From Nemertoderma westbladi (lineage: Eukaryota > Animalia > Xenacoelomorpha), in assembly GCA_032718475.1 (NCBI GenBank), contig JAUCBJ010002637.1:1-33098 (forward strand): DNA of 33,098 nt. Direction: 5' to 3'. Under the pieces are notes generated by a model. The model worked only from the letters and a program-made list of their open reading frames with translations. It was not told the DNA's origin and searched no databases. Numbering within the stretch: position 1 is the first letter of the stretch; each line of letters begins with the position of its first letter. Positions 6,001 through 32,590 of this stretch are shown piece by piece. The position numbers and the translations under genes were made by a program.

Positions 6001-6836
6001 AGCATCCAGTGAGTAATATAATAAAACCATCCCAAGGGATGCAGTGAATAATATAATAAACCCGTCCTAAGGGATGCAGTGAGTAATATAGTAAACCCGT
6101 CCTAAGGGATGCAGTGAATAATATAATAAACCCTTCCTAAGGGATGCAGTGAGTAATATAATAAAACCATCCCAAGGGATTCAGTGAGATATATAATAAA
6201 CCCGTCCTAAGGGATTCAGTTAGTAATATAATAAAACCATCCTAAGGGATTCAGTTAGTAATATAATAAAACCATCCTAAGGGATTCAGTGAGTAATATA
6301 GTAAACCCGTCCTAAGGGATGCAGTGAGTAATATAATAAAACCATCCCAAGGGATGCAGTGAGTAATATAATAAACCCGTCCAAAGGGATTCAGTTAGTA
6401 ATATAATAAAACCATCCTAAGGGATTCAGTTAGTAATATAATAAAACCATCCTAAGGGATTCAGTGAGTAATATAGTAAACCCGTCCTAAGGGATGCAGT
6501 GAGTAATATAGTAAACCCGTCCTAAGGGATGCAGTGAGTAATATAGTAAATCCATCCTAAGGGATGCAGTGAGTAATATAATAAAACCATCCTAAGGGAT
6601 TCAGTGAGTAATATAGTAAACCCGTCCTAAGGGATGCAGTGAGTAATATAATAAAACCATCCTAAGGGATTCAGTGAGTAATATAGTAAATCCATCCTAA
6701 GGGATTCAGTGAGTAATATAGTAAATCCGCCCTAAGGGATGCAGTGAATAATATAATAAACCCTTCCTAAGGGATGCAGTGAGTAATATAGTAAACCCAT
6801 CCTAAGGGATGCAGTGAGTAATATAGTAAACCCGTC
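1..6836. repeat. 35-bp tandem satellite (about 195 monomers in window, continues past window start) with a 2281-bp higher-order repeat
   Basis: Consensus GCAGTGAGTAATATAATAAACCCGTCCTAAGGGAT. Rare variants recur at exactly +2281 (e.g. 'aaagccgt', G at 1071/3352/5633; identical ORFs at 1640 and 3921). Confidence 0.98.
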
Positions 6837-9640
6837 GTACCAGCTTGCCCTGTAGATTGCCCCCAACCGAACCCTCTATACATCCAACCTACCAGTTTGC
6901 CCTGTAGATTGCCCCCAACCGAACCCTCTATACATCCAACCTACCAGTTTGCCCTGTAGATTGCGCCCCACGGCACCCTCTCTACCTCTAACCTACCAGT
7001 TTGCCCTGTATATTGCCTTCCACTGAATTCTCTCTACCTCTAACCTACCAGTTTGCCCTGTATATTGCCCTCCACTGAACCATCTCTACCTCTAACCTAC
7101 CAATTTGCCCTGTATATTGCCCTCAACCTCCACTGAACCCTCTCGACCTCTAACCTACCAGTTTACCCCGTATATTGCCATCCACTAAACCCTCTCTACC
7201 TCCAACCTACCAGTTTGCCCTGTATAGTGCCCTCCACTGCACCCTCTCTACCTCTAACCTACCAGTTTGCCCTGTAGATTGCCCCCCACCGAACCCTCTC
7301 TACCTCTAACCTACCAGTTTGCCCTTTATATTGCCCTCCGCTGAACCCTCTCTACCTCTAACCTACCAGTTTGTCCTGTATATTGCCCTCCACTGCACCC
7401 TCTCTACCTCTAACCTACCAGTTTGCCCTGTAGATTGCCCCCCACCGAACCTTCTCTACCTCTAACCTACCAGTTTGCCCTGTAGATTGCCCCCCACCGA
7501 ACCATCTCTACCTCTAACCTACCAGTTTGCCCTGTAGATTGCCCTCCACTGATCCCTATCTACCTCTAACCTACCTGTTTGCCCTGTAGATTGCCCCCCA
7601 CCGAACCTTCTCTACCTCTAACCTACCAGTTTGCCCTGTAGATTGCCCCCCACCGAACCCTCTCTGCCCCTAACCTACCAGTTTGCCCTGTATATTGCCT
7701 TCCGCTGAACCCTCTCTACCTCTAACCTACCAGTTTGTCCTGTATATTGCCCTCCATTGCACCCTCTCTACCTCTAACCTACCAGTTTGCCCTGTAGATT
7801 GCCCCCACCGAACCCTCTCTATCTCTAACCAACCAGTTTGCCCTGTAGATTGCCCCCCACCGAACCATCTCTACCTCTAACCTACCAATTTGCCCTGTAG
7901 ATTGCCCTCCACTGATCCCTCTCTACCTCTAACCTACCTGTTTGCCCTGTAGATTGCCCCCCACCGAACCTTCTCTACCTCTAACCTACCAGTTTGCCCT
8001 GTAGATTGCCCTCCACCGAACCCTCTCTGCCCCTAACCTACCAGTTTGCCCTGTATATTGCCTTCCACTGAACCCTCTCTACCTCTAACCTATCAGTTTG
8101 CTACCTCTAACCTACCAGTTTGTCCTGTATATTGCCTTCCACTGAACCCTCTCTACCTCTAACCTACCAGTTTGCCCTGTAGATTGCCCTCCACTGAACC
8201 CTATCTACCTCTAACCTACCAGTTTGCCCTGTAGATTGCCCTCCAATGAACCCTCTCTACCTCCAACCTACCAGTATGCCCTGTAGATTGCTCCCCACCG
8301 AACCCTCTCTACCTCTAACCTACCAGTTTGCCCTGTAGATTGCCCCCCACCGAACCCTTTCTACCTCTAACCTACCAGTTTGCCCTGTAGATTGCCCCCC
8401 ACCGAACCCTTTCTACCTCTAACCTACCAGTTTGCCCTGTAGATTGCCCCCCACCGAACCATCTCTACCTCTAACCTACCAGTTTGCCCTGTAGATTGCC
8501 CTCCACTGATCCCTCTCTACCTCTAACCTACCTGTTTGCCCTGTAGATTGCCCTCCAATGAACCCTCTCTACCTCCAACCTACCAGTTTGCCCTGTAGAT
8601 TGCCCCCCACCGAACCCTCTCTGCCTCTAACCTACCAGTTTGCCCTGTATATTGCCTTCCACTGAACCCTCTCTACCTCTAACCTATCAGTTTGCAACCT
8701 CTAACCTACCAGTTTGTCCTGTATATTGCCTTCCACTGAACACTCTCTACCTCTAACCTACCAGTTTGCCCTGTAGATTGCCCTCCACTGAACCCTATCT
8801 ACCTCTAACCTACCAGTTTGCCCTGTAGAGTGCCCTCCAATGAACCCTCTCTACCATCAACCTACCAGTTTGCCCTGTAGATTGCCCCCCACCGAACCTT
8901 CTCTACCTCTAACCTACCAGTTTGCCCTGTATATTGCCTTCCACTGAACCCTCTCTACCTCTAACCTATCAGTTTGCTACCTCTAACCTACCAGTTTGTC
9001 CTGTATATTGCCTTCCACTGAACCCTCTCTACCTCTAACCTACCAGTTTGCCCTGTATATTGCCTTCCACTGAACCCTCTCTACTTCTAACCTGCCAGTT
9101 TGCCCTGTATATTGCCCTCCACTGAACCCTCTTTACATTTAACCTACCAGTTTGCCCTGTAGATTGCCCCCCACCGAACCATCTCTGCCTCTAACCTACC
9201 AGTTTGCCCTGTAGATTGCCCTCCACTGAACCCTCTTTACATTTAACCTACCAGTTTTTCCTGTATATTGCCTTCCACTGAACCCTCTCTACTTCTAACC
9301 TGCCAGTTTGCCCTGTATATTGCCCTCCACTGAACCCTCTTTACATTTAACCTACCAGTTTGCCCTGTAGATTGCCCCCCACCGAACCCTCTCTGCCTCT
9401 AACCTACCAGTTTGCCCTCCACTGAACCCTCTTTACATTTAACCTACCAGTTTGCCCTGTAGATTGCCCTCCACAGCACCCTCTCTACCTCTAACCTACC
9501 AGTTTGTCCTGTATATTGCCTTCCACTGAACCCTCTCTACTTCTAACCTGCCAGTTTGCCCTGTATATTGCCCTCCACTGAACCCTCTTTACATTTAACC
9601 TACCAGTTTGCCCTGTAGATTGCCCTCCACAGCACCCTCT
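6837..9640. repeat. 52-bp tandem minisatellite (about 54 copies) containing the exon end and splice donor of exon 9919-9604
   Basis: Unit ~ACCAGTTTGCCCTGTAGATTGCCCCCCACCGAACCCTCTCTACCTCTAACCT; 'accag' at 6839, 6891, 6943 gives period 52. Minus strand reads ...GGGCAATCTACAGGGCAAACTG|GTAGGT. Confidence 0.97.
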
Positions 9641-9919
9641 CCAGCTCTGCAGTATGCCTGGCAACCGATGTGCATAGTTATCCCGGCAAACTCCTCCGGT
9701 ACGCCCCCTCGCGGTTCACAACGGACACCGACAACTGCTTTGTAGCATCGCTTTATCAACTCCTTTATCTCAGTACGGGTGCAACAGCCAATCAATAGCC
9801 GCTCTACCTCAGCTGGGTAGCTATGGTAACCGGCGTATACAGCAAACTCTTCCTCGTCCAATCGAGAAAGAGTTTCCTTGTATAACAACATCCGTTCATC
9901 CGGGTGGATTTGGTCAGAA
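9604..9919 (-). CDS. Internal coding exon (316 nt) of an unidentified multi-exon gene: SDQIHPDERMLLYKETLSRLDEEEF...MHIGCQAYCRAGEGAVEGNLQGKL
   Basis: Acceptor ttttgtttcag|T at 9920/9919, donor CTG|GTAGGT at 9604/9603. Open, protein-like frame. The 1-nt overhang completes the phase-2 end of exon 11919-11720 (AG+T = Ser). Confidence 0.8.
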
Positions 9920-10483: not shown

Positions 10484-10712
10484 TTTTCTACAAATCTTAC
10501 TTAATGATATTGCATGAAATTTGAAATAGAGATAGTTTCACCTCCCTGCTCCTCCGTGGGTGAGCCAGAATTGTTATTTTTGCTTTCATGCTTTTGCTAC
10601 AAGCGTTTATAAAAGGTGTCTCCGTCGATATTGCACCAGTTACACCGCTTATATTCTTCAATCTCATATAAGTTGTTGATTGTTGATGGAAAAAGCTGGC
10701 CGGCCGCGGCCA
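10484..10712 (+). mobile_element. Fragment of a dispersed repeat, homologous to the left arm of the foldback element at about 12040-12260
   Basis: Shares 'gattgcatgaaatttgaaatagagatagttt...cacctccc...ctcctccgtggg.gagccagaatt...gctacaagcgttt...gtgtctccg.cgatat...aagctggccggcc' with 12040-12260. Confidence 0.8.
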
Positions 10713-12039: not shown

Positions 12040-12720
12040 ATTTTTTCTACAAATCGTAATGAGATTGCATGAAATTTGAAATAGAGATAGTTTGTCACCT
12101 CCCTCCTCCTCCGTGGGAGAGCCAGAATTTTTAATTTGCTTTCAATCTTTAGCTACAAGCGTTTGAAAAATGTGTCTCCGGCGATATTTCACCAGTTACA
12201 CTCCAGTTATTCTTCAACCTTATAGTGAGTTGTTGCTACTGATGGAAAGCTGGCCGGCCATGTAAGGAATCCAAATATGTAACATAATCTAAATTTCGTT
12301 GAAAACTAGCTGAGATTTGAGCGTCAAAAGTTTCATGGTTTTACATCTGCATGAGGCTATTTTATTCTATTAAATAAAAATACCTTATTCTAGAACATTT
12401 TGTTTATTTATGAATAGCTACGTAATAGTATAATTAAAGAGGCATTGCATTGTTGCCCAGCTACATATGGAATAAACAAAATGTTCTAGAACATTGTGTA
12501 TTTATTAAATAGAATAAATGGCCTGCGGGGGAAGCAAATACATGCAACATTCGAATGCCAATATCTCAGCTATTTACCAACCAAATTCAAATGTTTTTAC
12601 AGATTTGGAATCCTTGCACGGTCAGCTTTCTACTAGTGCCAATAAATCACTATAAGGTTGAAGAATGATTGCACTGTGAGCTGTGGAATATCGCCGGAGA
12701 CACATTTTTCAAACACTTGT
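12040..12720. mobile_element. Long imperfect palindrome (foldback/MITE-like element), right arm cut off by the 60-bp array
   Basis: acaagcgtttgaaaaatgtgtctccggcgatat (from 12155) pairs with atatcgccggagacacatttttcaaacacttgt (to 12720). Inner pair ttctagaacattttgtttatt / aataaacaaaatgttctagaa. Centre about 12437; second partial copy at 10484-10712. Confidence 0.8.
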
Positions 12721-15700
12721 CCACAGGGCACAGACACTAAGTTACGTTATTTACACATTGACTTGACGGCAGAAAGATCCACAGGGCACAGACACTAAGT
12801 TACGTTACTTACACATTGACTTGACGGCAGAAAGATCCACAGGGCACATAGACTAAGTTACGTTACTTACATTGACTTGGAGTACGGCAGAAAGATCCAC
12901 AGGGCACAGACGCTAAGTTACGTTACTTACATTGACTTGGAGTACGGCAGAAAGATCCACAGGGCACAGACACTAAAGTTACGTTACATACATTGACTTG
13001 GAGTACGGCAGAAAGCTCCACAGGGCACAGACACTAAGTTACGTTACTTACATTGACTTGGAGTACGGCAGAAAGATCCACAGGGCACAGACACTAAGTT
13101 ACGTTACTTACATTGACTTGGAGTACGGCAGAAAGATCCGCAGGGCACATAGACTAAGTTACGTTACTTACATTGACTTGGAGTACGGCAGAAAGATCCA
13201 CAGGGCACAGACACTAAGTTATGTTACATACATTGACTTGGAGTAAGGCAGAAAGATCCACAGGGCACAGACACTAAGTTACGTTACTTACATTGACTTG
13301 GAGTACGGCAGAAAGATCCACAGGGCACAGACACTAAGTTACGTTACTTACATTGACTTGGAGTACGGCAGAAAGATCCACAGGGCACAGACACTAAGTT
13401 ACGTTACTTACATTGACTTGGAGTACGGCAGAAAGATCCACAGGGCACAGACACTAAAGTTACGTTACATACATTGACTTGGAGTACGGCAGAAAGATCC
13501 ACAGGGCACAGACACTAAGTTACGTTACTTACATTGACTTGGAGTACGGCAGAAAGATCCACAGGGCACAGACACTAAGTTACGTTACTTACATTGACTT
13601 GGAGTATGGCAGAAAGATCCACAGGGCACAGACACTAAAGTTACGTTACATACATTGACTTGGAGTACGGCAGAAAGATCCACAGGGCACAGACACTAAG
13701 TTACGTTACTTACATTGACTTGGAGTACGGCAGAAAGATCCACAGGGCACAGACACTAAAGTTACGTTACATACATTGACCTGGAGTACGGCAGAAAGAT
13801 CCACAGGGCACAGACACTAAGTTACGTTACTTACATTGACTTGGAGTACGGCAGAAAGATCCACAGGGCACAGACACTAAGTTACGTTACTTACATTGTC
13901 TTGGAGTACGGCAGAAAGATCCACAGGGCACAGACACTAAGTTACGTTACTTACATTGACTTGGAGTACGGCAGAAAGATCCACAGGGCACAGAGACTAA
14001 GTTACGTTACTTACAATGACTTGGGGTACGCCAGAAAGATCCACAGGGCACAGAGACTAAGTTACGTTACTTACATTGACTTGGAGTACGGCAGAAACAT
14101 CCACAGGGCACAGACACTAAAGTTACGTTACATACATTGACTTGGAGTACGGCAGAAAGATCCACAGGGCACAGACACTAAGTTACGTTACTTACATTGT
14201 CTTGGAGTACGGCAGAAAGATCCACAGGGCACAGACACTAAGTTACGTTACTTACAATGACTTGGGGTACGCCAGAAAGATCCACAGGGCACAGAGACTA
14301 AGTTACGTTACTTACATTGACTTGGAGTACGGCAGAAACATCCACAGGGCACAGACACTAAAGTTACGTTACATACATTGACTTGGAGTACGGCAGAAAG
14401 ATCCACAGGGCACAGACACTAAGTTACGTTACTTACATTGTCTTGGAGTACGGCAGAAAGATCCACAGGGCACAGACACTAAGTTACGTTACTTACAATG
14501 ACTTGGGGTACGCCAGAAAGATCCACAGGGCACAGACACTAAAGTTACGTTACATACATTGACTTGACGGCAGAAAGATCCACAAGGCACAGACACTAAG
14601 TTACGTTACTTACATTGACTTGGAGTACGGCAGAAAGATCCACAGGGCACAGACACTAAAGTTACGTTACATACATTGACTTGACGGCAGAAAGATCCAC
14701 AAGGCACAGACACTAAGTTACGTTACTTACATTGACTTGGAGTACGGCAGAAAGATCCACAGGGCACAGAGATTAAGTTACGTTACTTACATTGACTTGG
14801 AGTACGGCAGAAACATCCACAGGGCACAGACACTAAAGTTACGTTACATACATTGACTTGGAGTACGGCAGAAAGATCCACAGGGCACAGACACTAAGTT
14901 ACGTTACTTACACATTGACTTGGAGTACGGCAGAAACATCCACAGGGCACAGACACTAAAGTTACGTTACATACATTGACTTGGAGTACGGCAGAAAGAT
15001 CCACAGGGCACAGACACTAAAGTTACGTTACATACATTGACTTGACGGCAGAAAGATCCACAAGGCACAGACACTAAGTTACGTTACTTACATTGACTTG
15101 GAGTACGGCAGAAAGATACACAGGGCACAGAGATTAAGTTACGTTACTTACATTGACTTGGAGTACGGCAGAAATATCCACAGGGCACAGACACTAAGTT
15201 ACGTTACTTACATTGACTTGGAGTACGGCAGAAAGATCCACAGGGCACAGACACTAAGTTACGTTACTTACATTGACTTGGAGTACGGCAGAAAGATCCA
15301 CAGGGCACAGACACTAAGTTACGTTACTTACATTGACTTGGAGTACGGCAGAAAGATCCACAGGGCACAGACACTAAGTTACGTTACTTACATTGACTTG
15401 GAGTACGGCAGAAAGATACACAGGGCACAGACACTAAGTTACCTTACTTACATTGACTTGGAGTACGGCAGAAAGATCCACAGGGCACAGACACTAAGTT
15501 ACGTTACTTACACATTGACTTGGAGTACGGCAGAAAGATCCACAGGGCACAGACACTAAGTTACGTTACTTACATTGACTTGGAGTACGGCAGAAAGATC
15601 CACAGGGCACAGACACTAAGTTACGTTACTTACACATTGACTTGGAGTACGGCAGAAAGATCCACAGGGCACAGACACTAAGTTACGTTACTTACACATT

Positions 15701-16995
15701 GACTTGGAGTACGGCAGAAAGATCCACAGGGCACAGACACTAAGTTACGTTACTTACATTGACTTGGAGTACGGCAGAAAGATCCACAGGGCACAGACAC
15801 TAAGTTACGTTACTTACATTGACTTGGAGTACGGCAGAAAGATCCACAGGGCACAGACACTAAGTTACGTTACTTACATTGACTTGGAGTACGGCAGAAA
15901 AATCCACAGGGCACATACACTAAGTTACGTTACTTACATTGACTTGGAGTACGGCAGAAAGATCCACAGGGCACAGACACTAAGTTACGTTACTTACATT
16001 GACTTGGAGTACGGCAGAAAGATCCACAGGGCACAGACACTAAGTTACGTTACTTACATTGACTTGGAGTACGGCAGAAAGATCCACAGGGCACAGACAC
16101 TAAGTTACGTTACTTACATTGACTTGGAGTACGGCAGAAAGATCCACAGGGCACAGACACTAAGTTACGTTACTTACATTGACTTGGAGTACGGCAGAAA
16201 GATCCACAGGGCACAGACACTAAGTTACGTTACTTACATTGACTTGGAGTACGGCAGAAAGATCCACAGGGCACAGACACTAAGTTACGTTACTTACATT
16301 GACTTGGAGTACGGCAGAAAGATCCACAGGGCACAGACACTAAGTTACGTTACTTACATTGACTTGGAGTACGGCAGAAAGATCCACAGGGCACAGACAC
16401 TAAGTTACGTTACTTACATTGACTTGGAGTACGGCAGAAAGATCCACAGGGCACAGACACTAAGTTACGTTACTTACATTGACTTGGAGTACGGCAGAAA
16501 GATCCACAGGGCACAGACACTAAGTTACGTTACTTACATTGACTTGGAGTACGGCAGAAAGATCCACAGGGCACAGACACTAAGTTACGTTACTTACATT
16601 GACTTGGAGTACGGCAGAAAGATCCACAGGGCACAGACACTAAGTTACGTTACTTACATTGACTTGGAGTACGGCAGAAAGATCCACAGGGCACAGACAC
16701 TAAGTTACGTTACTTACATTGACTTGGAGTACGGCAGAAAGATCCACAGGGCACAGACACTAAGTTACGTTACTTACATTGACTTGGAGTACGGCAGAAA
16801 GATCCACAGGGCACAGACACTAAGTTACGTTACTTACATTGACTTGGAGTACGCCAGAAAGATCCACAGGGCACAGACACTAAGTTACGTTACTTACATT
16901 GACTTGGAGTACGGCAGAAAGATCCACAGGGCACAGAGACGTTGGTTACGTTGGTTACTTACATTAACTTGGGGTACGCCAGATGGATCCACAGA
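12721..16995. repeat. ~60-bp tandem minisatellite (about 70 copies) containing the exon end and GTAAGT donor of exon 17109-16963
   Basis: Unit GATCCACAGGGCACAGACACTAAGTTACGTTACTTACATTGACTTGGAGTACGGCAGAAA. Minus strand CTGTGGATCTTTCTGCCGTACTCCAAGTCAAT|GTAAGT versus exon CTGTGGATCCATCTGGCGTACCCCAAGTTAAT|GTAAGT. Confidence 0.97.
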
Positions 16996-17296: not shown

Positions 17297-19764
17297 GTTT
17301 ACTGGAGACATCGTACAACAGAACTGTAAGCCACCAGTAAACTGGAGACTTCGTACAACAGAACTGTAAGCCACCAGTAAACTGGGGACTTCGTATAACA
17401 GAACTGTAAGCCACCAGTAAACTGGAGACTTCGTACAACAGAACTGTAAGCCACCAGTAAACTCCGGACTTCGTACAACAGAACTGTAAGCCACCAGTAA
17501 ACTCCGCACTTCGTACAACAGAAGTGTAAGCCACCAGTAAACTGGAGACTTCGTACAACAGAACTGTAACCCACCAGTAAACTTGGGACTTCGTACAACA
17601 TAACTGTAAGCCACCAGTAAACTCCGCACTTCGTACAACAGAACTGTAAGCCACCAGTAAACTGGAGACTTCGTACAACAGAACTGTAAGCCACCAGTAA
17701 ACTGGGGACTTCGTACAACAGAACTGTAAGCCACCAGTAAACTCCGGACTTCGTACAACAGAACTGTAAGCCACCAGTAAACTCCGCACTTCGTACAACA
17801 GAACTGTAAGCCACCAGTAAACTGGAGACTTCGTACAACAGAACTGTAAGCCACCAGTAAACTCCGGACTTCGTACAACAGAACTGTAAGCCACCAGTAA
17901 ACTCCGCACTTCGTAGAACAGAAGTGTAACCCACCAGTAAACTGGGGACTTTGTACAACAGAACTGTAAGCCACCAGTAAACTTGGGACTTCGTACAACA
18001 TAACTGTAAGCCACCAGTAAACTCCGCACTTCGTACAACAGAACTGTAAGCCACCAGTAAACTCCGCACTTCGTACAACAGAACTGTAAGCCACCAGTAA
18101 ACTGGGGACTTTGTACAACAGAACTGTAAGCCACCAGTAAACTTGGGACTTCGTACAACATAACTGTAAGCCACCAATAAACTCCGCACTTCGTACAACA
18201 GAACTGTAAGCCACCAGTAAACTCCGAACTTCGTACAACAGAACTGTAAGCCACCAGTAAACTGGAGACTTCGTACAACAGAACTGTAACCCACCAGTAA
18301 ACTCAGGACTTCGTACAACATAACTGTAAGCCACCAGTAAACTGGGGACTTTGTACAACAGAACTGTAAGCCACCAGTAAACTTGGGACTTCGTACAACA
18401 TAACTGTAAGCCACCAGTAAACTCCGCACTTCGTACAACAGAAGTGTAACCCACCAGTAAACTCTGGACTTCGTACAACAGAACTGTAAGCCACCAGTAA
18501 ACTGGGGACTTTGTACAACAGAACTGTAAGCCACCAGTAAACTTGGGACTTCGTACAACATAACTGTAAGCCACCAGTAAACTCCGCACTTCGTACAACA
18601 GAAGTGTAAGCCACCAGTAAACTGGAGACTTCGTACAACAGAACTGTAACCCACCAGTAAACTCCGGACTTCGTACAACAGAACTGTAAGCCACCAGTAA
18701 ACTGGAGACATCGTACAACAGAACTGCAACCCACCAGTAAACTGGAGACTTCGTACAACATAACTGTAAGCCACCAGTAAACTGGAGACTTCGTACAACA
18801 GAACTGTAACCCACCAGTAAACTCCGGACTTCGTACAACAGAACTGTAAGCCACCAGTAAACTGGAGACTTCGTACAACAGAACTGTAACCCACCAGTAA
18901 ACTTGGGACTTCGTACAACATAACTGTAAGCCACCAGTAAACTCCGAACTTCGTACAACATAACTGTAAGCCACCAGTAAACTGGAGACTTCGTACAACA
19001 TAACTGTAAGCCACCAGTAAACTGGGGACTTTGTACAACAGAACTGAAAGCCACCAGTAAACTGGGGACTTCGTACAACATAACTGTAAGCCACCAGTAA
19101 ACTCCGGACTTCGTACAACAGAACTGTAAGCCACCAGTAAATTCCGAACCTCTTACAACAGAAATGTAAGCCTCCAGTAAACTGGGGACTTCGTACAACA
19201 TAACTGTAAGCCACCTGTAAACTCCAGACTTCGTACAACAGAACTGTAAGCCACCTGTAAACTCCAGACTTCGTACAACATAACTGTAAGCCACCAGTAA
19301 ACTGGGGACTTCGTACAACAGAACTGTAAGCCACCAGTAAACTGGGGACTTTGTACAACAGAACTGTAAGCCACCAGTAAACTGGAGACTTCGTACAACA
19401 GAACTGTAAGCCACCTGTAAACTCCAGACTTCGTACAGCAGAACTGTAAGCCACCAGTAAACTCCGAACTTCGCACAACAGAACTGCAAGCCACCAGTAA
19501 ACTGGGGACTTCGTACAACAGAACTGTGAGCCACCAGTAAACTCCGGACTTCGTACAACATAACTGTAAGCCACCAGTAAACTGGGGACTTCGTACAACA
19601 GAACTGTAAGCCACCAGTAAACTGGGGACTTTGTACAACAGAACTGTAAGCCACCAGTACACGTGGGACCTCGTACAACAGAACTGTAAGCCACCAGTAA
19701 ACTGGAGACTTCGTACAACAGAACTGTAAGCCACCAGTAAACTCCAGACTTCGTACAGCAGAAC
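17297..19764. repeat. 40-bp tandem minisatellite (about 62 copies, no indels)
   Basis: Unit ACT[GGAG/GGGG/CCGG/CCGC/TGGG...]ACTTCGTACAACAGAACTGTAAGCCACCAGTAA; the register is constant along the whole array. Confidence 0.98.
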
Positions 19765-19993
19765 ACGTTATGGCTTCTGACCCACCCAAAACCACACAAC
19801 CCTCGTATAATGAGACGGGTGGGGATGTTCAATTATAAATTTAGGGAAAGGAGCAGGTTACAGGGGTACCATATTCTAACCAAAACAATAAACCGAAGTC
19901 AATAGGACATGGTAGTTTTATTTTTTGGAAGTAACAGCTGTCATTTCGATTTTCCCCTGGTGGTGTGGGATGAATTTTCATTACGCCGAAAGT

Positions 19994-20279
19994 CCCCGCC
20001 GTATCCGAGTAAACCGCACAGTTCTGACTCGCATCCCCGCCGTTTCCGAGTAAACCTCACAGTTCTGACTCGCATCCCCGCCGTATCCGAGTAAACCTCA
20101 CAGTTCTGACTCGCATCCCCGCCGTATCCGAGTAAACCTCACAGTTCTGACTCGCATCCCCGCCGTTTCCGAGTAAACCTCACAGTTCTGACTCGCATCC
20201 CCGCCGTATCCGAGTAAACCTCACAGTTCTGACTCGCATCCCCGCCGTTTCCGAGTAAACCTCACAGTTCTGACTCGCA
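19994..20279. repeat. 41-bp tandem repeat (about 7 copies)
   Basis: Unit CCCCGCCGT(A/T)TCCGAGTAAACCTCACAGTTCTGACTCGCAT. Confidence 0.95.
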
Positions 20280-21360: not shown

Positions 21361-21602
21361 AACCAATCAACGACTCTCAATCAGGGCTGTCCCAACCAAT
21401 CAACGACCCTCAATCAGGGCTGTCCCAACCAATCAACGACCCTCAATCAGGGCTGTCCCAACCAATCAACGATCCTCAATCAGGGCTGTCCGAGTGGCCA
21501 ATCAACGACCCTCAATCAGGGCTGTCCGAGTGGCAAATCAACGACCCTCAATCAGGGCTGTCCCAACCAATCAACGACCCTCAATCAGGGCTGTCCGAGT
21601 GG
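21361..21602. repeat. 33/36-bp tandem repeat (7 copies) spanning the UBXN10 stop codon and 3' UTR start
   Basis: Unit (AA)CCAATCAACGACCCTCAATCAGGGCTGTCC(C/GAGTGG); minus strand GAC AGC CCT GAT TGA is the last four codons plus stop. Confidence 0.93.
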
Positions 21603-23086
21603 CTATGAAGGTAAATCACAGACTTATCTGTGATCCGATAATCGTTCAACGTCTTATTCAAATCTGAAAGAATTCTCGAGGGAATATCTGCGGTCACAAA
21701 ATCGTGATGCTGGAAACGCATATCGGCTGTTTGTTCCGCGAATTCTAGAACGTTTCTAAGCGGGTCGTCGATGTGGAACAATCGTTGACAGCGCTGTCCA
21801 CTTGGCAACCGGATCGCCAACAGGATGTCGGAGACGGATTTGGGTTGCGATACGTCTATCCAGTCGATATCCGGTAAGTCGGAAGAATCCGAGTCCGTCG
21901 GAGTCGGGGCGTTTGGCGAGAGTACCTGGTAGTCACCGTAGTCTGTGATAGCGAAACCTTCTAGGTCCTGTAGGGAGTCCCGTCTGGGTTGCGAGTCTGG
22001 GGAGGGGAGTGGCAGCTCAGTTTGGTACGGTGGGTCAGTCTGGTACGATGGGTCTGGTTGGTACATTGGGTCTCTTTGATACATTTGGTCCGTTTGGTAC
22101 ATTGGATCCGTTTGGTACATTGGGTCTGTTTGGTACATTGGGTCTGTTTGATACATTCGGTCCGTTTGATACACTGGGTCTGTTTGGTACAGGTTTCCAG
22201 TGTGGTGTGGCGCTTCCGGTAGCGACCCAGAACGTCCGCCGATCCCCGGTAACGGCGCGTACCGACCCAACGACGACGAACCCTCCGGACGGAGTTGCGA
22301 AAGGATATCCAGGGTATCGTCGGTGGAGAGACGCCTCCTAGCGGAGGTTAATGGTCGCGGAACCACGCCGCTAGGGGGCGCGTAGGATGTGTCTACACGA
22401 GGTGCCTGCTGCGACATGCAATCCCGGGTGGAGGAACTGGTCGGATTGACGAGACGGGGAGCCTCGAAACGATCGAACCACGGAACCTCGTCGACGACGC
22501 GTTGCGTAGCAACCGTCGGACTTCGGGAAGCCATCTCGCGGTCGTTCTGCGCGAACTCCTCCTGTATCGGGGGTCTAGAACGTCGCCCTCGGGAGGTGCG
22601 AGGCCTTTCGGTTCCCTCGTAAGCGATCACCGTGGGAGCCTCGCTGGCCGACGGATCGGGCTGCTGCGAGTAGAAGATCTCCGCACCCAGGTTGAGATTC
22701 AGTGACTCATCGGTAGGTTTCGTCTCCCTGGGTGACGGTTTAGGCTTCGGTTGTACCTGTTTAGCCTGGATGGAACCGGTGAAGGTCTGTCGATTCGCTT
22801 TGCTCGAAACCACCGCCGTTTGAGGTTTCGCTCTGGGGGACTGGAAGTTTCTCGACGCGCCAGTTTGGTATGTTCTGCTAGTCGAGGAAACCGACGCGTT
22901 GGATAGACCCCGTCTGTACCCGTAGGTCGGGAGGGTCTGCTGGCCGCCTATTGGCCGTTGCTGCGGTGTCCTGGAACTGGGTTGCTGTCCGGCCATCCCA
23001 CCAGGTTTACCATTCGGATTCTCTATTTGTTGGCGTTTCTCGCTTCCTCTACTGGTACGTGGACGATTGTCCATCGTAGTGGCCAT
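21581..23086 (-). CDS. UBXN10: UBX domain-containing protein 10-like (p97/VCP adaptor linked to ciliogenesis), single coding exon, 501 aa
   Basis: C-terminal UBX domain (LLAIRLPSGQRCQRLFHIDDPL...IPSRILSDLNKTLNDYRITDKSVIYL). Motifs RPRTSRGRRSRP and SSSLGRYAPLPGI resemble human UBXN10 RPKSAKGRTRP and SSSLNKYPVLPSI (recalled from memory). Long disordered N-terminus. Confidence 0.85.
   Translation of the reverse strand: MATTMDNRPRTSRGSEKRQQIENPNGKPGGMAGQQPSSRTPQQRPIGGQQTLPTYGYRRGLSNASVSSTSRTYQTGASRNFQSPRAKPQTAVVSSKANRQTFTGSIQAKQVQPKPKPSPRETKPTDESLNLNLGAEIFYSQQPDPSASEAPTVIAYEGTERPRTSRGRRSRPPIQEEFAQNDREMASRSPTVATQRVVDEVPWFDRFEAPRLVNPTSSSTRDCMSQQAPRVDTSYAPPSGVVPRPLTSARRRLSTDDTLDILSQLRPEGSSSLGRYAPLPGIGGRSGSLPEAPHHTGNLYQTDPVYQTDRMYQTDPMYQTDPMYQTDPMYQTDQMYQRDPMYQPDPSYQTDPPYQTELPLPSPDSQPRRDSLQDLEGFAITDYGDYQVLSPNAPTPTDSDSSDLPDIDWIDVSQPKSVSDILLAIRLPSGQRCQRLFHIDDPLRNVLEFAEQTADMRFQHHDFVTADIPSRILSDLNKTLNDYRITDKSVIYLHSHSDSPD
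22010..22189 (-). repeat. Coding 18-bp repeat, 10 x YQTDPM-like hexapeptide
   Basis: YQTDPV YQTDRM YQTDPM x3 YQTDQM YQRDPM YQPDPS YQTDPP YQTELP in the ORF. Confidence 0.95.
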
Positions 23087-24664: not shown

Positions 24665-25524
24665 TCTGGATATTAATTTGTGCCTTTAAGTTGACAATAC
24701 ATTGAAATAATTATTGCTAAAAAAAACGTAACCTGTTGAATGTGGTACATAGTACACAAGTAAGTACTAAGGCAAACAATATAATATGTAGACAAAAACA
24801 AAACTGACATTAATGAAAATAATTTATAACTATTTACATACAAATCACAAATCAAAGTACAAATCACTTCTTACAAAAAAATACGTCAAGTAAATACCAT
24901 GGAAGATTACATTGACCTGGTGCACCATGTTATGGTCACCCTTGGGACCAACAGTTAATGTTTTAGCATAAAGGCATTTTTTAACGAATTAGCATTTTTT
25001 TAAATAATACTGTGTGTAGAAAATTGCGGGAAACAGAGTTAATTAAAAATAAATAAGAGTAATCGAACTCTTTATCATAGCAATTGATAAATTGTATTTT
25101 ACTCGTACAAACTATTGCAACTCCTTTTCCACAATATATTATTATCCCTGTATATACCACGGTGTTATAAAGCTCAAACGATGAGGCGCATTGACAAGTT
25201 GTACATGCTTGCTCATGTCAAAATATTGTTGAAACGATAAATAAGAATAACTGAGGAATTAAGTGACAAATCATATTTAACAAAATTCGAAGAATATGTG
25301 ACGAATAATATTGATAGAAATCAAAAACGGTTTCGATATGTCTTCGAGACAAGTTGAGTCACAAAAATTGTCAAAAATTACATCCTTTGCCCCCCCCCCC
25401 CCCATCACTTTTATATAATTATATATTTTTTTATTACTTTTCATTAACTAAGTTTACATAATTTATTGGGATATAGTATCCCTATAGTCTTCCATCCAAA
25501 TGTGACGTACTGTTTATATAATTA

Positions 25525-28500
25525 TTACACAAGTAATTTATGCATATGAATCTCGTTATGGGCAACACTAAATATAATATTTCCGCGAGGTGAAAAAATA
25601 ACTTTACTGAGACTGTCGGAGTGGGTAAGAAAGTCCTGAAACGTTCCTTCCGTGTAGTCCACTAGTTTGATGAGCCATTCTCTGGTCGCTATAGCAATGA
25701 CGTGGCCCTTTGGGGACACGTCGAGCGAAGCAGCCCAATGGTTAATGTCGAGTTTACGAATAGTTTTCCGTTGACTTAAACTATAAAACTGGATACAACA
25801 TTGCAAACCGTAGCCGCTGTACACGATAACATCTGTGTCTGTGGGGCTAAACCGAGCGAGACTAGGCGGGTTACTGGACGGGTCTGTGGAGCCAGACAGG
25901 GCTGGGAAAGTCAACCAATCGATGAGGTCGCACAGATCCCGCGACCAATCGGAGCTCCACACGCTGACCCGCCGGTCCTGCGAGCAGACCAACCACAGAG
26001 AGGGTGGGGCCACCATCGGATCCCTATTGGTCGAGGGTTGGGCGTGTAAGTCGGTAATAGAAGCGCCTTTGTGATCAGATATAATACGCAACGTCATTCC
26101 GGTCGCGGTGTTGTTCACCGCAATCAACCCGTCCGCACCACCGCTTATAAAAACCCGCTCATCGCGACTGTATATAACGTGTTCTACGCTGGAGGAATGC
26201 GGACGCATCTTTAGAGTTACGTCCATTTTAGTCAGATCGAAAAGACGCAAAGTCCCATCGAGGTAGCCGGCTATTACTTTCAGTTTGTTGAGTGGCGTCG
26301 TCTCTGGACTAAAGGCGACGCAGCCACAACTCTGCCCCGCAACCTGGAACTGCATAGATTGCTCCACCGCAGAGCCATCTAGCGTCCACAATCGCACGCT
26401 GCCGTCGGCGCAACTGGTTGCTAGGTAACGCTCGTTGTTAAGGGCGACACCTGTTACTGACAGGGAGTGGCTGCTGACCAGACGAATGGAACTCCTCTCA
26501 TCCCAGTTGATGTACCACAGAGTGGAGGCGTCAGTCCCCACTATACCCATATCAAGAGAGGAGTCGAAGGAGGCACTAATTACTCCTCCGTCCAAGACCA
26601 TCTCGTCTTCCATAACCAACTGCTGCCTCCCTTGTCGCTCCTCCCTAATGCTCCACAGTCGCAACCGACCCGCGCTGCTCCCCATCACCAACCGACGACT
26701 CCTACAGACTAAGACCCCAATCTCTGCCGTGTCCCCCTCCCAGTGCATGTAACACGAGTTGTCCCGGGTGTCCCATGCGCTCAAAGTACCCCGACTGGTC
26801 CCCGCGTACAGCGAGCTGTCGGGGCCGTAACAGACCGACGTCAGTTCCCCGACTACCTCACCAGGGACACACGCACGATGGACCCCCAGACGAACCCCCT
26901 CACCAAGTTCCAACATCCAGAAAGAAATACATCGATCGTAACCAATGGTAACGAACTCGGTAAAGGCCGACGGGTCCCATGAGATCTGTAGAACCGGAGT
27001 CTCCGGGACACAAGCGGTTAGCAGACTCCAGTCCGCGGTAGACCACAGCGCAACGGCAGGGCTGTGGAGGTCCCCCGCTGATATTAAATAAGAGTCGTCC
27101 TTAGAGAACGCCAACGATTGCACACCTGTTTTATAGTAAGTTATAATTTTAATAAGTCTGTTCGGTAAACTCCAGATACAGAGTTGGCAGTTGGAAAGAC
27201 CGTCAGAGGAGGAAGCTGTAGCCAAAAACTGGGAGGCGTTGCTAAGAGACAATGTGTTTATTTCGTGGTCGTGGCCAATCAGATGAGTCTGCTCGTTAGT
27301 GGTGAGATCCTCAACAATAACAATGGCGCCGCTCGTGTATATGACTAAGGATGAGTCAGCGTCTGCGTTCCACGCCAGGTTGGAACGTCCGTTCCCGTTG
27401 TATCCGATTACTGTAGTTAGTTTGAGACCCGACTGGTTAGGTGGAGCCACATACCGGCACTGAGCCACTGGGAAGCACCGCTCCCGACTGAGGAACCGTT
27501 TGTGGACGGCGGCAAATCGCTGCACCGAAGGTTCCGTTAACCCAACGTTTTCTACGTCTCTTTCCGTCTGTCGATCCATTATCAATCCAGTTACCGGTGG
27601 CGGTGTATGAGATTCATTTAAATCGTAGATAGTCGGACTGGTGGAACCGAATGCTAACATTGTGTCGGCGTCACCCATTGGCTCTCCAGACAACTCATCG
27701 GCAACCGACAACTCGGCAGTACTAACGCTCCTCCCACAAGAATTCCTCGCTACTATCGAATATTTACCGGCGTCACTTAAACGGATGTCGGATATAACCA
27801 AACTGAACTTCGCGCCAACAAAGATTTTTTTAATTCTCACAGAGTCATAAATAATCCTCTCATTGTGGAACCACTCCACTTCTGGGTCGGGATCACATTC
27901 TATAATGGCGTCTAAACGAATACCTTCCCCCACCTTGGCCTTCAAACTAACTAACGCATTAACAAAATTAGGAGGCGTAAGCAATCCTGACTGTATAGAA
28001 TGCCCCCCAATGTTACCAACATTAGCAGTTGGAATTACTTTCAGATTCGCATAGGATGTTATTTTCCCTGCGCTATTCTCCGCAATGCAGGTCCAAGTTC
28101 CCGCATCGGGGATACGAATCCTTGAGATATCCAAGGAATGCATCGTACCATCGAAGGATATGACCACCCGACCGTCGTTCTTCACTACCACCCCATCGTG
28201 GAACCACCTCGTACGGAGTGGAGGATGCGACTTGATCCTAACAGAGAATGTAACTCGCCCATCTTCAGGAACTTCCTGATTATGGAGTCTGGAATAGAAC
28301 TTAGGAAGCCTAATGGCTGTCGGGTTATTAATAAATCCATCTCCTTGGTTATCAATGCAGTCTGTCTGTCCATTGGAAACAAAGTCCCAAGGAGGCGATA
28401 TATTATCTCCATTAACGCGGAGCACTTCAGTAAATAGTTTGTTAGGAATCTCTACATTTCCATTACCGGTTCCATTACATTCAATGATGTTTCTAGTTTG

Positions 28501-31497
28501 TTTGGGAACATTCGAATTAACATCCAACGAATCTCCACCATCAAGTACCGCTCTTCCTGAGAACCTCCATACCAGCAGTCCATCTCCCCCCGATATCAGA
28601 TACTTCCCATCAGGACTAAATTCCATGTTCTTTATTTTTCCCGAATGTCCAATAAACTGTTGATGACCACCAGCCTTACTCCAGTAACTATAAAGTTTTA
28701 TCATTTTATTACCACCCAAAGCAATAAATTGTGAGTCTGGAGAAACAGCTATACTGTAGACATGGTCCTCAATTGAAACTACATCTAATATTTCGCCGTT
28801 GTGGTTGTTAATTTTTAGCAGTTTTGATGATGAAGTGATAACAAGTAAATGGCTAGAATAAGTTGGTGGATAAATAAGGTTTACCGCGCGGTCCAAATGC
28901 CGACTTTCACACACGGAAGAAACGTCAACACGTAGGAATTCGTCCAGGGTTTTTCCATTTAGCAACGTAACAATAGAACTGGATGGCCCAATAACTGCTA
29001 ATTGAGTGGAATCACCATTGACAGCTAAACAATTCGAAGCCGTTCTGCAAACCAAACCATCAAGTTTACGTGCGATTATCCAATCGCGGGTCGCCACAAC
29101 ACAAATTGTGGAACATTTTCCTCCAACATAAAGATAATATCCATTGTTAGAAAATGCCAAACCTGTAATTTCAGATTTCGTCGTTTTAAATTTCATAAAT
29201 TGTTTCTGCATCTGCTGAATATAAATGTGAACTACACCAGAACTATCGCCCACAGCTAATGTCCCGTTGGAGGGATGTATGGCAACCTTCTCCGGGAATG
29301 AGTTGGGAAAGTTGGATAATTTAACCTTTGCTATTTGAGTACAATGATCGTCGATCGCACGTAGACGTATTGTTGAGTCAGATGACGCAGTTATTAGCTG
29401 CATATTACTATAATCCAATGAAAAATCGATCAGCTCGTCAACTTGACAATGAATCAATGCTTTATAACTTCTGCTGTCAATATCCAGAACACCTACATCT
29501 CCACCGCGAGTTCCCACAGCAATCTTTAAACCGTCATCACAAACATAAACTGAGTCAAACGGCTCCTCCAAATCAACTTCGAGAAACACCGATGAGAAAT
29601 CCAAAGGCCACACGCGCAAGTATCCATCGGTAGAACAGGTTACGCAGAATGCATCAGTGACACCGACACGTTCCAGCGTAATAGCCCCGGATTGGTTAGT
29701 AGGAACGAGTTTACAGACTTGGTCCACAGCCGGGTGTGGTAAAGTAAGCTTAATGATCAACCCTGATGTAGTGCAGGAAAATAGAAACCCATCATCGCCC
29801 TTTTGGTGTGCAATGTCGGTAAATGTGTGCAGAGAATAATCTAAAAGATCAATAGGACACGATCGCAGTGAATTATTACGCAACTTCCATAACTGAATGT
29901 TACTCTGTCCGCAAGATACTGCGGAAAATCCATCGTTACTTAAAACAATCAGTTTGTTGATATGAACATCAGTGATGGCTCTCGCAAGTACAGTGTGAGA
30001 AGCTTGCGTGATGTCCCAAACAATAACCAGGTATTTATCATGCGTATCTCGACAAACAGCCCATAATGTGCTCTTAGACAACGCGATACAATTCAATCCC
30101 CGAGCATGAGCAGTGAGCACAGAGAGACATGATAGGGATCGCAGACTCCATAGCCGTATCAGAGTCACATCTCCCGCTTGTCCAGAAGCCAAAATATCTC
30201 CTCGGGGATCTAGAGCAAGGGCGGCAATTTTATCAGTATGGCCCATAAGAAACAATTGTTTCCCAGTAGACAATGTGTGAGCGACTACAATAGCATGAGC
30301 AGGATATATGACTAACGCTCCGTCTTTAGTGAATAATATATCCCTGCAATTCGACCCACCATACCCAACGACGTGGAGTAACTTCATTATTGGATCAGGA
30401 AGCAAAGATTGGTCAGTAGACAACTTAGTAACGCGGGTAATTGTGGCCGGATGGGATTCAACTTGATTACGAGTAACACTGGAAGAAGTCTCGGTGTTCG
30501 CATACACGTTAACAGATCGATTATTACCTCGATCTTCCAGCACCTCAGGTAGTTCCATAGTAACTTTCTTACGAATAGTTGACTTGGGTTTAGTTAATCG
30601 GTTAACTAAAGATAAATCCTGGTTTCCACCCTGCCGGGAATCCACTTCAGCCACAACCATTCGCTTGGTATCCACAATTGAACCGCCAATCACAGGTAGT
30701 GGATGTTTGTGTTTCATTAAAGGAGTACATTTTTGGACAGAATCGAAAGGTGGTTGACAAAGAATCTCCTTGCTGGGGAAATTAATAAAGTCGTAAAGGT
30801 CAGCCCATTTGGTGTTGCTAGGTACTGGGAATGTAAGGTCCCTCGGAAGTGGGGTACAGCCAGTGGATAGTAGACCTTTCCTCTTGGCGTCATGGTAACT
30901 AATACCCGGTTCATAGGATATATCAGAAGTGATACAATTCTTCACTAACATGCTCGCACAAAGCTGAATCGCTTTAACATGGCTGAAGACACGGTGCAGG
31001 TAAACATTGAGCAGAAGATGCAAATCTAGACAAAGCACAGTCCATCTGCTACTAATGGGGGCTGGACCTTGATAACCATGCTTCCCCCCTTTAGCTGTTC
31101 GGCTGTCTATACTACCATCCGGATAGGGACATAAGTATGGGAACTGCAACCAAGTTGATGTACTTTTAAATTCTTTATAAAGGTTGCTGATACTCACCCT
31201 CACAATTAAACTATCGTTTGTGGCGACATCTAAATGAATTGCAAAATACTTTGAAGGAGTTGGTTTAAAGAATATATACAAATTTTTTCCTGTTAATCCC
31301 AATGATTGAGTGCTGCATTTTGGCAACTGTATATAGTTAACAGCTGGAACTGAGCCAGATATTTTATAAACAGTACTTTTTAATTCTTTGTCCATAATTG
31401 TTGAGACATCGCCTTCACGACTCACCCGCTTCCAATCACTAATTTCGCAAAATTTAAAGAGATTTAGGTACGGATTCTGCCACAGTTTTAAAGTCAT
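25525..31497 (-). CDS. WDR90: WD repeat-containing protein 90 (POC16; centriole/basal body protein), uninterrupted 1990-aa ORF with two inserted Ig I-set domains
   Basis: N-terminus LWQNPYLNLFK...DWKRVSREGDV...VYKISGSVPAVNYIQLPK.STQSLGLTG...VRVSISNLYKEFKSTSTWLQFP is the WDR90 CFAP20/DUF667-like domain. It is followed by LLPDPIMKL..VVGYGG and LKLTTVIGYNGNGRSNLAW starts of the two WD40 halves. Confidence 0.95.
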   Translation of the reverse strand: MTLKLWQNPYLNLFKFCEISDWKRVSREGDVSTIMDKELKSTVYKISGSVPAVNYIQLPKCSTQSLGLTGKNLYIFFKPTPSKYFAIHLDVATNDSLIVRVSISNLYKEFKSTSTWLQFPYLCPYPDGSIDSRTAKGGKHGYQGPAPISSRWTVLCLDLHLLLNVYLHRVFSHVKAIQLCASMLVKNCITSDISYEPGISYHDAKRKGLLSTGCTPLPRDLTFPVPSNTKWADLYDFINFPSKEILCQPPFDSVQKCTPLMKHKHPLPVIGGSIVDTKRMVVAEVDSRQGGNQDLSLVNRLTKPKSTIRKKVTMELPEVLEDRGNNRSVNVYANTETSSSVTRNQVESHPATITRVTKLSTDQSLLPDPIMKLLHVVGYGGSNCRDILFTKDGALVIYPAHAIVVAHTLSTGKQLFLMGHTDKIAALALDPRGDILASGQAGDVTLIRLWSLRSLSCLSVLTAHARGLNCIALSKSTLWAVCRDTHDKYLVIVWDITQASHTVLARAITDVHINKLIVLSNDGFSAVSCGQSNIQLWKLRNNSLRSCPIDLLDYSLHTFTDIAHQKGDDGFLFSCTTSGLIIKLTLPHPAVDQVCKLVPTNQSGAITLERVGVTDAFCVTCSTDGYLRVWPLDFSSVFLEVDLEEPFDSVYVCDDGLKIAVGTRGGDVGVLDIDSRSYKALIHCQVDELIDFSLDYSNMQLITASSDSTIRLRAIDDHCTQIAKVKLSNFPNSFPEKVAIHPSNGTLAVGDSSGVVHIYIQQMQKQFMKFKTTKSEITGLAFSNNGYYLYVGGKCSTICVVATRDWIIARKLDGLVCRTASNCLAVNGDSTQLAVIGPSSSIVTLLNGKTLDEFLRVDVSSVCESRHLDRAVNLIYPPTYSSHLLVITSSSKLLKINNHNGEILDVVSIEDHVYSIAVSPDSQFIALGGNKMIKLYSYWSKAGGHQQFIGHSGKIKNMEFSPDGKYLISGGDGLLVWRFSGRAVLDGGDSLDVNSNVPKQTRNIIECNGTGNGNVEIPNKLFTEVLRVNGDNISPPWDFVSNGQTDCIDNQGDGFINNPTAIRLPKFYSRLHNQEVPEDGRVTFSVRIKSHPPLRTRWFHDGVVVKNDGRVVISFDGTMHSLDISRIRIPDAGTWTCIAENSAGKITSYANLKVIPTANVGNIGGHSIQSGLLTPPNFVNALVSLKAKVGEGIRLDAIIECDPDPEVEWFHNERIIYDSVRIKKIFVGAKFSLVISDIRLSDAGKYSIVARNSCGRSVSTAELSVADELSGEPMGDADTMLAFGSTSPTIYDLNESHTPPPVTGLIMDRQTERDVENVGLTEPSVQRFAAVHKRFLSRERCFPVAQCRYVAPPNQSGLKLTTVIGYNGNGRSNLAWNADADSSLVIYTSGAIVIVEDLTTNEQTHLIGHDHEINTLSLSNASQFLATASSSDGLSNCQLCIWSLPNRLIKIITYYKTGVQSLAFSKDDSYLISAGDLHSPAVALWSTADWSLLTACVPETPVLQISWDPSAFTEFVTIGYDRCISFWMLELGEGVRLGVHRACVPGEVVGELTSVCYGPDSSLYAGTSRGTLSAWDTRDNSCYMHWEGDTAEIGVLVCRSRRLVMGSSAGRLRLWSIREERQGRQQLVMEDEMVLDGGVISASFDSSLDMGIVGTDASTLWYINWDERSSIRLVSSHSLSVTGVALNNERYLATSCADGSVRLWTLDGSAVEQSMQFQVAGQSCGCVAFSPETTPLNKLKVIAGYLDGTLRLFDLTKMDVTLKMRPHSSSVEHVIYSRDERVFISGGADGLIAVNNTATGMTLRIISDHKGASITDLHAQPSTNRDPMVAPPSLWLVCSQDRRVSVWSSDWSRDLCDLIDWLTFPALSGSTDPSSNPPSLARFSPTDTDVIVYSGYGLQCCIQFYSLSQRKTIRKLDINHWAASLDVSPKGHVIAIATREWLIKLVDYTEGTFQDFLTHSDSLSKVIFSPRGNIIFSVAHNEIHMHKLLV
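27703..28305 (-). other. Two tandem immunoglobulin I-set domains within WDR90 (about aa 1065-1265)
   Basis: PKFYSRLHNQEVPEDGRVTFSVRIKSHPPLRTRWFHDG...HSLDISRIRIPDAGTWTCIAENSAGKITSYANLKV and PPNFVNALVSLKAKVGEGIRLDAIIECDPDPEVEWFHN...FSLVISDIRLSDAGKYSIVARNSCGRSVSTAELSV show the I-set signatures (PxF, PxPxVxW, DxGxYxxxAxNxxG). Confidence 0.93.
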
Positions 31498-31729: not shown

Positions 31730-32590
31730 TACTACTACTACTACTACTAGGATCGGCATGTTGCATTGCAGCTGCATTTTTAAGAATGCTATGCCGGCTT
31801 GTCGACAAAATTGCGCCGCCACAACTCCCTATCACCCATGACATTGGCTAGATCATCCACATCTTCAAGGCCAGTGTCCTTTAAGATGCGTCTCAAGAAA
31901 GTCATGGGCTGTCCACCATGCTTATTCACTCCATGAGGCTGCCAAAGATTATGCACTGGCTGGTCCTCACGGCGAAAGCAATGTCCTGCAAAGCGTAGGC
32001 GATTTTGTTCTAGTGTCAAGCTTGGGGGAATCAATGAGCCCGACGTACCATTCTTGTGAATGTGCCATCCAGAGACTTGGCGTCCTCAGCAGTTAGAGCC
32101 CAGCATGGACTCCTATAGAGAAGTGCTGGAACTATTGCTGCTCTAAATAATCGGACCTTAAGTTTCCAATTAATTCTCGGTGACTTCCAAATCCTGGAAA
32201 GCCTATTCAAGCAGTCAATCCATGATTCATGGGATCCATGATCCCAGGTAACAGAAGTCATCCACATGCTCAAGCATACCATCCTTTGAGCTTATGCTCA
32301 TCCTATCAGACTTGCTGACTTTAAAATTTAACTGTCAAAATTGTGGACTTTCTAGAGTTATTAAAAAGACCAACACTAGAAGCAGCATGTTCTAATGAGC
32401 TGAGGAGCCGTTGGCCTCCCTCTAGCTGTCTAGTGATTCTGAGAGTACTCCTAAGTCATCAGCAAAGTCTAGATCAGTTAGGTACTTGGCAGGATTTCCT
32501 CGACTTCTAAGGACATGCATAGAACATAGTCAAACACAATTATGAACAAGAATGGTGCAAGTGTGTCTCCCTGGAGGACGCCCCAACGAT
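31730..32590 (-). mobile_element. 5'-truncated, frameshifted RTE-clade LINE with (TAG)n tail
   Basis: Minus strand: GVLQGDTLAPFLFIIVFDYVL, YLTDLDFADD (RT catalytic motif), LKVRLFRAAIVPALLY...LDGTFTRMVRRA, RLRFAGHCFRR...MGDRELWR. A trinucleotide tail (tac)n on plus lies at 31730-31749. Confidence 0.9.

Follow-up and report, generated by a model that had tools for sequence, protein, structure and literature searches.

An intronless WDR90/POC16 gene of Nemertoderma westbladi with two predicted titin-family I-set domains between its WD40 halves

Introduction

WDR90/POC16, a structural component of the centriole wall, is deeply conserved and consists of an N-terminal DUF667/CFA20 domain followed by WD40 propellers. 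Portions of PMC7500955 describe binding of the DUF667 domain to microtubules and tubulin and locate WDR90 on the triplet wall of the centriole central core; the binding to microtubules reported there concerns the N-terminal domain alone, and the WD40 part has only a proposed place, in the lumen of the B-tubule. Part of a further study, PMC13406575, describes WDR90 as a scaffold-to-wall anchor. Tandem I-set domains are for their part well described from the titin/connectin family, e.g., in titin Z1Z2 and UNC-89/obscurin, and from zormin/CCDC141-type proteins, which combine them with spectrin repeats. Within this second group, zormin is treated as the CCDC141 orthologue beside titin, at a "connectitin" locus (in part of PMC12198301), a CCDC141 Ig is reported as a titin binder (in part of PMC12657953), and extracts of the literature tie CCDC141/CAMDI to centrosome movement, with no evidence of any bearing on the insert described here.

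Here, we analyze a window, i.e., the whole 33,098-nucleotide stretch of DNA under study, whose WDR90 protein keeps the canonical order of domains but differs from WDR90/POC16 elsewhere in having two I-set domains in the linker between propellers 2 and 3 and no introns. These domains share with titin-family tandems the fold, the lack of a canonical disulfide, and ~30% identity to many pairs; in contrast, they are two only, are separated by 21 aa (the inter-Ig linker of titin Z1Z2 is much shorter), and belong to a centriole rather than a sarcomere protein. With zormin/CCDC141-type proteins they have in common the 21-aa Ig spacing and a second domain closest to Ig4, whereas the spectrin repeats and the inter-Ig motif are absent and the first domain has no preference for Ig3. 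WDR90 and Ig domains are each familiar, as is the process of Ig capture; it is the combination that is unseen in sampled sequences.

Results

The window contains a single WDR90/POC16 reading frame of 1990 codons without internal stops at 25525–31497 on the reverse strand, as are all features of the gene given below. This intronless coding sequence (1990 aa plus stop) shows 33–42% identity over its length to 21 WDR90s, and a candidate polyadenylation hexamer lies 60 nt downstream of the stop codon's first base (25462–25467). In a full-length search that gave 86 matches from 4,267 candidates, the closest relatives were WDR90s: the top 62 matches are full WDR90-type proteins and reach at least 833 bits except for one at 625, while the next match below attains only 154 bits. 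We kept these 62 WDR90s and dropped the 24 non-WDR90 rows. In a tree of 29 of 63 WDR90 rows, the window protein takes a long, unplaced animal branch (1.69 vs. a median of 0.36).

The domain set is complete. The CFA20/DUF667 region, the family's microtubule-binding module (about aa 2–250, 30748–31494; PF05018, E = 1.3e-30), has a median identity of 55% to 25 non-vertebrate orthologues. It is followed by WD40 propellers 1–2 (aa 370–979, 28561–30390; PF23393 at E = 4.9e-76, and PF23409), with median identities of 37% and 31% to orthologues, and by propellers 3–4 (aa 1349–1990, 25528–27453; PF23342 at E = 1.2e-104), with 45–46%. All four propellers are present, with matches to the family-specific 2nd and 4th models (Beta-prop_WDR90_POC16_2nd, PF23393, 256 bits against a cutoff of 60; WDR90_beta-prop_4th, PF23342, 350 bits against a cutoff of 50). 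Since all canonical domains are intact, a centriole role is likely kept, by analogy with the binding known from other species. A hydropathy search of the protein for a membrane segment found none (highest 19-residue value 1.44).

WDR90 motifs are conserved on both sides of the linker that joins propeller 2 (ending at aa 979) to propeller 3 (starting at aa 1349). In between, an N/G/D-rich flank of 85 aa (aa 980–1064, 28306–28560), likely disordered, precedes the insert, and a flank of 83 residues (aa 1266–1348, 27454–27702) follows it; the final ~20 residues of the latter retain the motif that WDR90s have ahead of propeller 3, and profiles of orthologue linkers gave no match to the flanks. The whole linker measures 369 aa, or 168 aa without the insert (flanks summed), compared to a median of 151.5 aa (range 52–308) in the 62 other WDR90s and of 166 aa in the 26 non-vertebrate rows among them. 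The insert accounts for most of the extra length over human WDR90, as proposed earlier: its 201 aa are ~83% of the excess over a human protein of ~1750 aa. In most rows of the full-length search, invertebrate WDR90s are ~1800–1930 aa long. Relative to these, the window protein gains no more than ~100 aa overall, since outside the insert it is 40–120 aa shorter than the 6 orthologues compared.

The insert spans 27703–28305 and corresponds exactly, and in frame, to aa 1065–1265. Pfam detects I-set (PF07679) in two stretches of it (E = 4.4e-38, 129.7 bits, cutoff 23.7), and positions 1–90 of a custom I-set profile are fully covered at aa 1065–1154 and again at aa 1176–1265. By Pfam, profile, and AlphaFold, the first domain occupies 28036–28305, with C1137 in the F strand as its sole Cys; profile and AlphaFold delimit the 21-aa inter-Ig linker (27973–28035), of low confidence in the model, and the second domain (27703–27972), whose canonical B/F positions are not occupied by Cys. 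The only Cys residues of the insert are 1137, 1201, and 1254, so that the canonical B–F disulfide pair is absent from both domains; together with the absence of a membrane segment, this fits the expectation for intracellular domains. An AlphaFold model from a 31-row alignment folds the insert into two complete Ig sandwiches with a mean pLDDT of 93.8, low only in the linker, and its pTM of 0.54 leaves the relative position of the two domains unfixed. Foldseek ranks titin Z1Z2 first among known folds (E = 2e-21, 31% identity), then other titin tandems. A single-sequence model of the 387-aa linker region was uninformative (pLDDT 33.5), and the ESM Atlas offered one Ig-only cluster at 0.79, below the usable range. 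The preliminary description had placed two complete I-set domains, in frame, in the variable WDR90 linker, and coordinates, Pfam, and profile agree with it, as does the AlphaFold model that it suggested. The reading frame is not due to chance: none of 10,000 shufflings of the insert's bases stayed open, and the remaining two frames of the strand hold 13 and 17 stops. Overall, sequence and model support the assignment of both domains to the intracellular titin-family I-set class, and the insert is likely translated and folded.

We next consider the distribution of this architecture. The 62 WDR90s come from a homoscleromorph sponge, cnidarians, spiralians, a priapulid, ambulacrarians, and chordates; human WDR90 is absent from the full-length matches, and none of these is named as flatworm, xenacoelomorph, ctenophore, glass sponge, or arthropod. 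Not one of the 62 carries an Ig (best phmmer E = 0.62), and the I-set profile matches the window protein alone. Six-frame translations of 79 metagenome WDR90 loci were equally free of Ig domains, including all 19 loci, several of them redundant, that span the linker. Neither a search with the linker region (8 matches of 4,023) nor one among shorter proteins (3 matches of 7,993) gave a protein with both WDR90 and Ig parts, and among the best 150 of 6,149 matches from 1.84 billion representatives none aligned to the WD40 or CFA20 parts. Among the papers retrieved on WDR90 with immunoglobulin, centriole, POC16 domains, or orthologue architecture, none indicated such a layout, and PMC5172248 mentions neither immunoglobulin nor I-set. 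The claim that WDR90 normally consists of CFAP20/DUF667 and WD40 parts only agrees with the lack of an Ig in 62 of 62 proteins and 79 of 79 loci (19 of them spanning the linker), and among these the Ig-bearing architecture is not already widespread. Sequence comparison thus supports a layout that is lineage-restricted as far as sampled, with one species known; because sampling is incomplete, the insert may be common to an unsampled clade.

The physical continuity of the insert was evaluated in contigs from DNA runs, of which X1 and X2 represent one sample (possibly the source of the window) and X3 another sample from another study. In all three, independently assembled single contigs bridge both edges of the insert, and the X3 contig matches 25000–28861 with 1 other letter. 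At 85% likeness, each run covers the insert at the depth of one contig, and depth stays flat and single-contig across nearly the whole WDR90 gene. No further copy at ≥85%, be it a recent donor or a parent WDR90, was found among the X1, X2, and X3 contigs, which show presence rather than absence, so that a diverged or filtered second copy could escape. Disablements, neutral evolution, and an intron-bearing parent, which would mark a processed pseudogene, were not seen: the gene has no stop, a pN/pS of 0.35, and no second copy at 85% among contigs.

Across four runs, we counted 28 coding differences (13 synonymous and 15 non-synonymous; no stops and no listed indel or frameshift), part of which may be errors in the window's own assembly. 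These give a whole-gene pN/pS of 0.35 (p = 0.006 against neutrality), and the insert holds one of the 28, the non-synonymous S1142R. The differences are unevenly spread, with 4 in the 3' half (below 28560) vs. 24 in the 5' half, and the break in density, close to a step in GC3, may reflect haplotype structure. In a further run, X5, the insert has no cover, and one contig joins 26689 to 30681; the junction breaks the frame, omits 3,991 nt, shows no splice ends, and has 5 nt of microhomology. We rejected this junction as a splice form, since it is out of frame, lacks splice ends, and would lose much of three propellers; it is likely a library chimera or a deletion. Relative to single-copy depth, X5 also contains ~25-fold less high-copy repeat than X1.

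Both domains score like working Igs: ranked among 3,037 held-out titin-family domains, Ig1 stands at the 68th percentile and Ig2 at the 51st, although this background set was chosen by likeness to the query, which favors its scores. Simulated random decay of 15% lowers the median domain score from 70–76 to 33.5 bits. The best database matches to either Ig reach 35–43% identity (among the best 150 of 6,149). Given these scores and the lack of any copy at ≥85% among the X1, X2, and X3 contigs, the insertion looks old and kept under purifying selection. The preliminary description had proposed a dN/dS test. The whole-gene pN/pS of 0.35 speaks for constraint on the gene, and the sole variant within the insert is non-synonymous, so that selection on the insert itself is addressed only indirectly.

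As for the donor, the named top matches to the Igs are unc-89-like, titin-like, and CCDC141-like proteins. Spectrin-Ig proteins contribute only 155 of the 3,216 domains compared, yet they supply all of the 10 best matches of Ig2, and 6 of the 10 are Ig4; against an Ig4 profile, Ig2 scores above 99.6% of other domains, with identities to Ig4 of up to 43%. The Ig3–Ig4 gap is, as in the insert, 21 aa in 8 of 9 spectrin-Ig rows (two near-duplicate pairs included), a spacing found in 30 of 2,622 other Ig pairs. In contrast, Ig1 shows no preference for Ig3 of this family (36 bits, where the background averages 38), the insert lacks the inter-Ig motif conserved in the family, and in a tree of 93 domains (90 columns) neither Ig finds a place, both falling outside the Ig3/Ig4 clade. 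The proposed search for a donor led part of the way, to a spectrin-Ig Ig4 as the best match of Ig2 by score, with no such grouping from Ig1 or the tree. From these comparisons, the donor was very probably some titin-family gene, and Ig3–Ig4 of a zormin/CCDC141-type spectrin-Ig gene is a tentative candidate at somewhat less than even odds; "zormin-type" is here our reading of the spectrin-plus-Ig layout, and one source names two members of the cluster CCDC141-like. The earlier label "titin/MLCK-type" stands in its first half, by fold and matches. Its second half found no backing among the named matches: one MLCK domain matches at only E = 1e-9 among solved structures, and none of the 20 named top proteins (of the best 150) is MLCK, the named best matches being titin-like, unc-89-like, and spectrin-Ig.

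Other animal WDR90 genes comprise 28–30 exon-like segments (L007, L015), and their linkers span 1.4–4.4 kb of DNA with introns inside, which implies that the window WDR90 lost essentially all of its introns. The preliminary description had concluded from the lack of flanking introns that exon shuffling would need later intron loss or an RNA intermediate. This point is weakened by the intronless state of the whole gene: the absence of introns at its edges is not peculiar to the insert and calls for no mechanism of its own, and exon shuffling of the ordinary kind, ahead of the loss, would be enough. Two routes appear most likely, and both fit data that do not separate them: entry of the exons by shuffling into an intron of the linker, with the gene later replaced from cDNA, or a template switch during reverse-transcription-driven loss of ~30 introns. 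The insert is not bordered by any long direct repeat or target-site duplication, the longest word in common being 8 nt. GC3 steps from ~0.35 to 0.55 with a change point between aa 1057 and 1331, where a step model gains 39 log units vs. 29 for a slope. This step may mark the insertion junction; given a GC3 of 0.60 in the neighboring gene, a regional effect is equally probable. Strong reduction of WDR90 introns has a second lineage in seven rotifer-like loci (L002-L004, L013, L037, L038, L040; best match Adineta, ~57–64%), which are compact, with few short introns, linkers of 454–547 bp, and no Ig.

Discussion

We propose, with a probability of roughly 0.55, that this gene is a WDR90 with an old titin-family Ig capture that has been retained as a spacer or docking module. 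As in other WDR90s, the triplet wall of the centriole would be bound through the CFA20 domain, while each Ig would form a bead without a disulfide, held by tethers of ~60–85 residues. Placed between likely disordered tethers, the Igs would not disturb the propellers; they could set the two propeller pairs up to ~9 nm further apart, extending the reach of the protein and presenting two additional surfaces for binding on the side of the inner scaffold.

The retained-module reading has to be weighed against a tolerated passenger, i.e., an Ig pair that is made as protein yet does nothing by itself, being kept because stops and frameshifts would disable a gene the animal needs and because unfolded domains would do harm. 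Its position where the protein varies most, with linkers of 52–308 aa and little conservation, would suit a passenger, as would the non-synonymous nature of the only variant in the insert and the fact that part of PMC7500955 reports microtubule binding for the N-terminal domain alone. Still, an in-frame deletion would be free of cost, yet both domains are complete and score like working Igs, and no close donor appears among the contigs; we consider a passenger less likely than a retained module. The boldest extension of the retained module, in which an animal lineage rebuilt its centriole/basal-body anchor with a titin-derived extensible load-bearing link or ruler, from the triplet wall to the inner scaffold or contractile filaments, and recruited this muscle-spring domain during reverse-transcription-driven intron loss, strikes us as improbable. 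As to the adaptation suggested earlier, its lineage-specific side agrees with a layout restricted as far as sampled. The link to rootlet or muscle filaments found no support: it is possible, and awkward for a protein of the wall and lumen, fitting poorly with the place of WDR90 at the triplet wall and inner scaffold in portions of PMC7500955.

The remaining alternatives question the gene or the insert itself. A chimeric retrocopy or young pseudogene, i.e., an mRNA-derived WDR90 copy with an Ig piece beside a working WDR90 elsewhere, would account for an intronless gene where relatives have ~30 segments, for the long branch, and for the GC3 step near the insert, but it is very hard to reconcile with 1990 open codons, the pN/pS of 0.35, a CFA20 region at 55% identity, flat single-contig depth across almost the whole gene in X1, X2, and X3, and no trace there of a parent copy at 85%. 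Removal of the insert by splicing, always or in some isoforms, would yield an ordinary WDR90 protein, and GT and AG dinucleotides do occur on both sides; yet the only GTRAG donor of the linker lies inside Ig2, no AG follows an 8-nt pyrimidine tract, the domains are intact, and a non-coding linker stays free of stops in just 0.26% of simulations at 15% divergence with substitutions only (5% for the insert alone), which makes this reading highly improbable. An assembly chimera of WDR90 with a titin-like gene might be suspected in a window rich in tandem repeats. Such an artifact, named at the outset as a possible undoing of the finding, can practically be discounted, as contigs from two samples and two studies span both edges with the frame kept at each.

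The layout of WDR90 is fixed in every other sampled sequence, and a natural two-domain insertion indicates that the linker between propellers 2 and 3 can loop out or stretch. This tolerance constrains the placement of the WD40 halves, which is left open in the relevant part of PMC7500955, and makes the linker a likely safe site for internal tags. The locus would also offer a clean case of capture of a muscle-type domain into a ciliary gene, along with the loss of all introns. Should sister species share the insert under selection, it would become a clade marker and point to a candidate for unusual basal-body architecture.

The surroundings of the gene contain several further features. An intronless UBX-domain gene of ~500 aa lies at 21581–23086 on the reverse strand (PF00789, E = 1e-8); its nearest Atlas clusters are UBXN10 (0.88–0.89), of 236–294 aa, and it holds a coding tandem repeat (18 nt × 9.6 copies), with its final codons lying within a 33-bp tandem array. 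UBXN10 is a ciliary p97 adaptor, and on this footing two cilium-related genes would adjoin in the window. Pfam gave nothing convincing for five other ORFs of the window, and an Rfam scan of 9600–33098 returned no matches. The region 31740–32000, 240 bp upstream of the WDR90 start, is a very high-copy interspersed repeat with a summed contig depth of ~2 million vs. 38 for single-copy DNA in X1, SINE- or MITE-like by its abundance and without an Rfam match. Dispersed repeat copies are found at ~10490–10710, 12050–12260, and 12530–12720, the third apparently inverted by eye. Five unrelated satellite arrays (1–6833, 6838–9648, 12720–16994, 17301–19764, and 19993–20279, with units of 35, 52, 60, 40, and 41 bp) lie close together and yield long spurious ORFs, a cluster that is possibly a subtelomeric region or the edge of heterochromatin.
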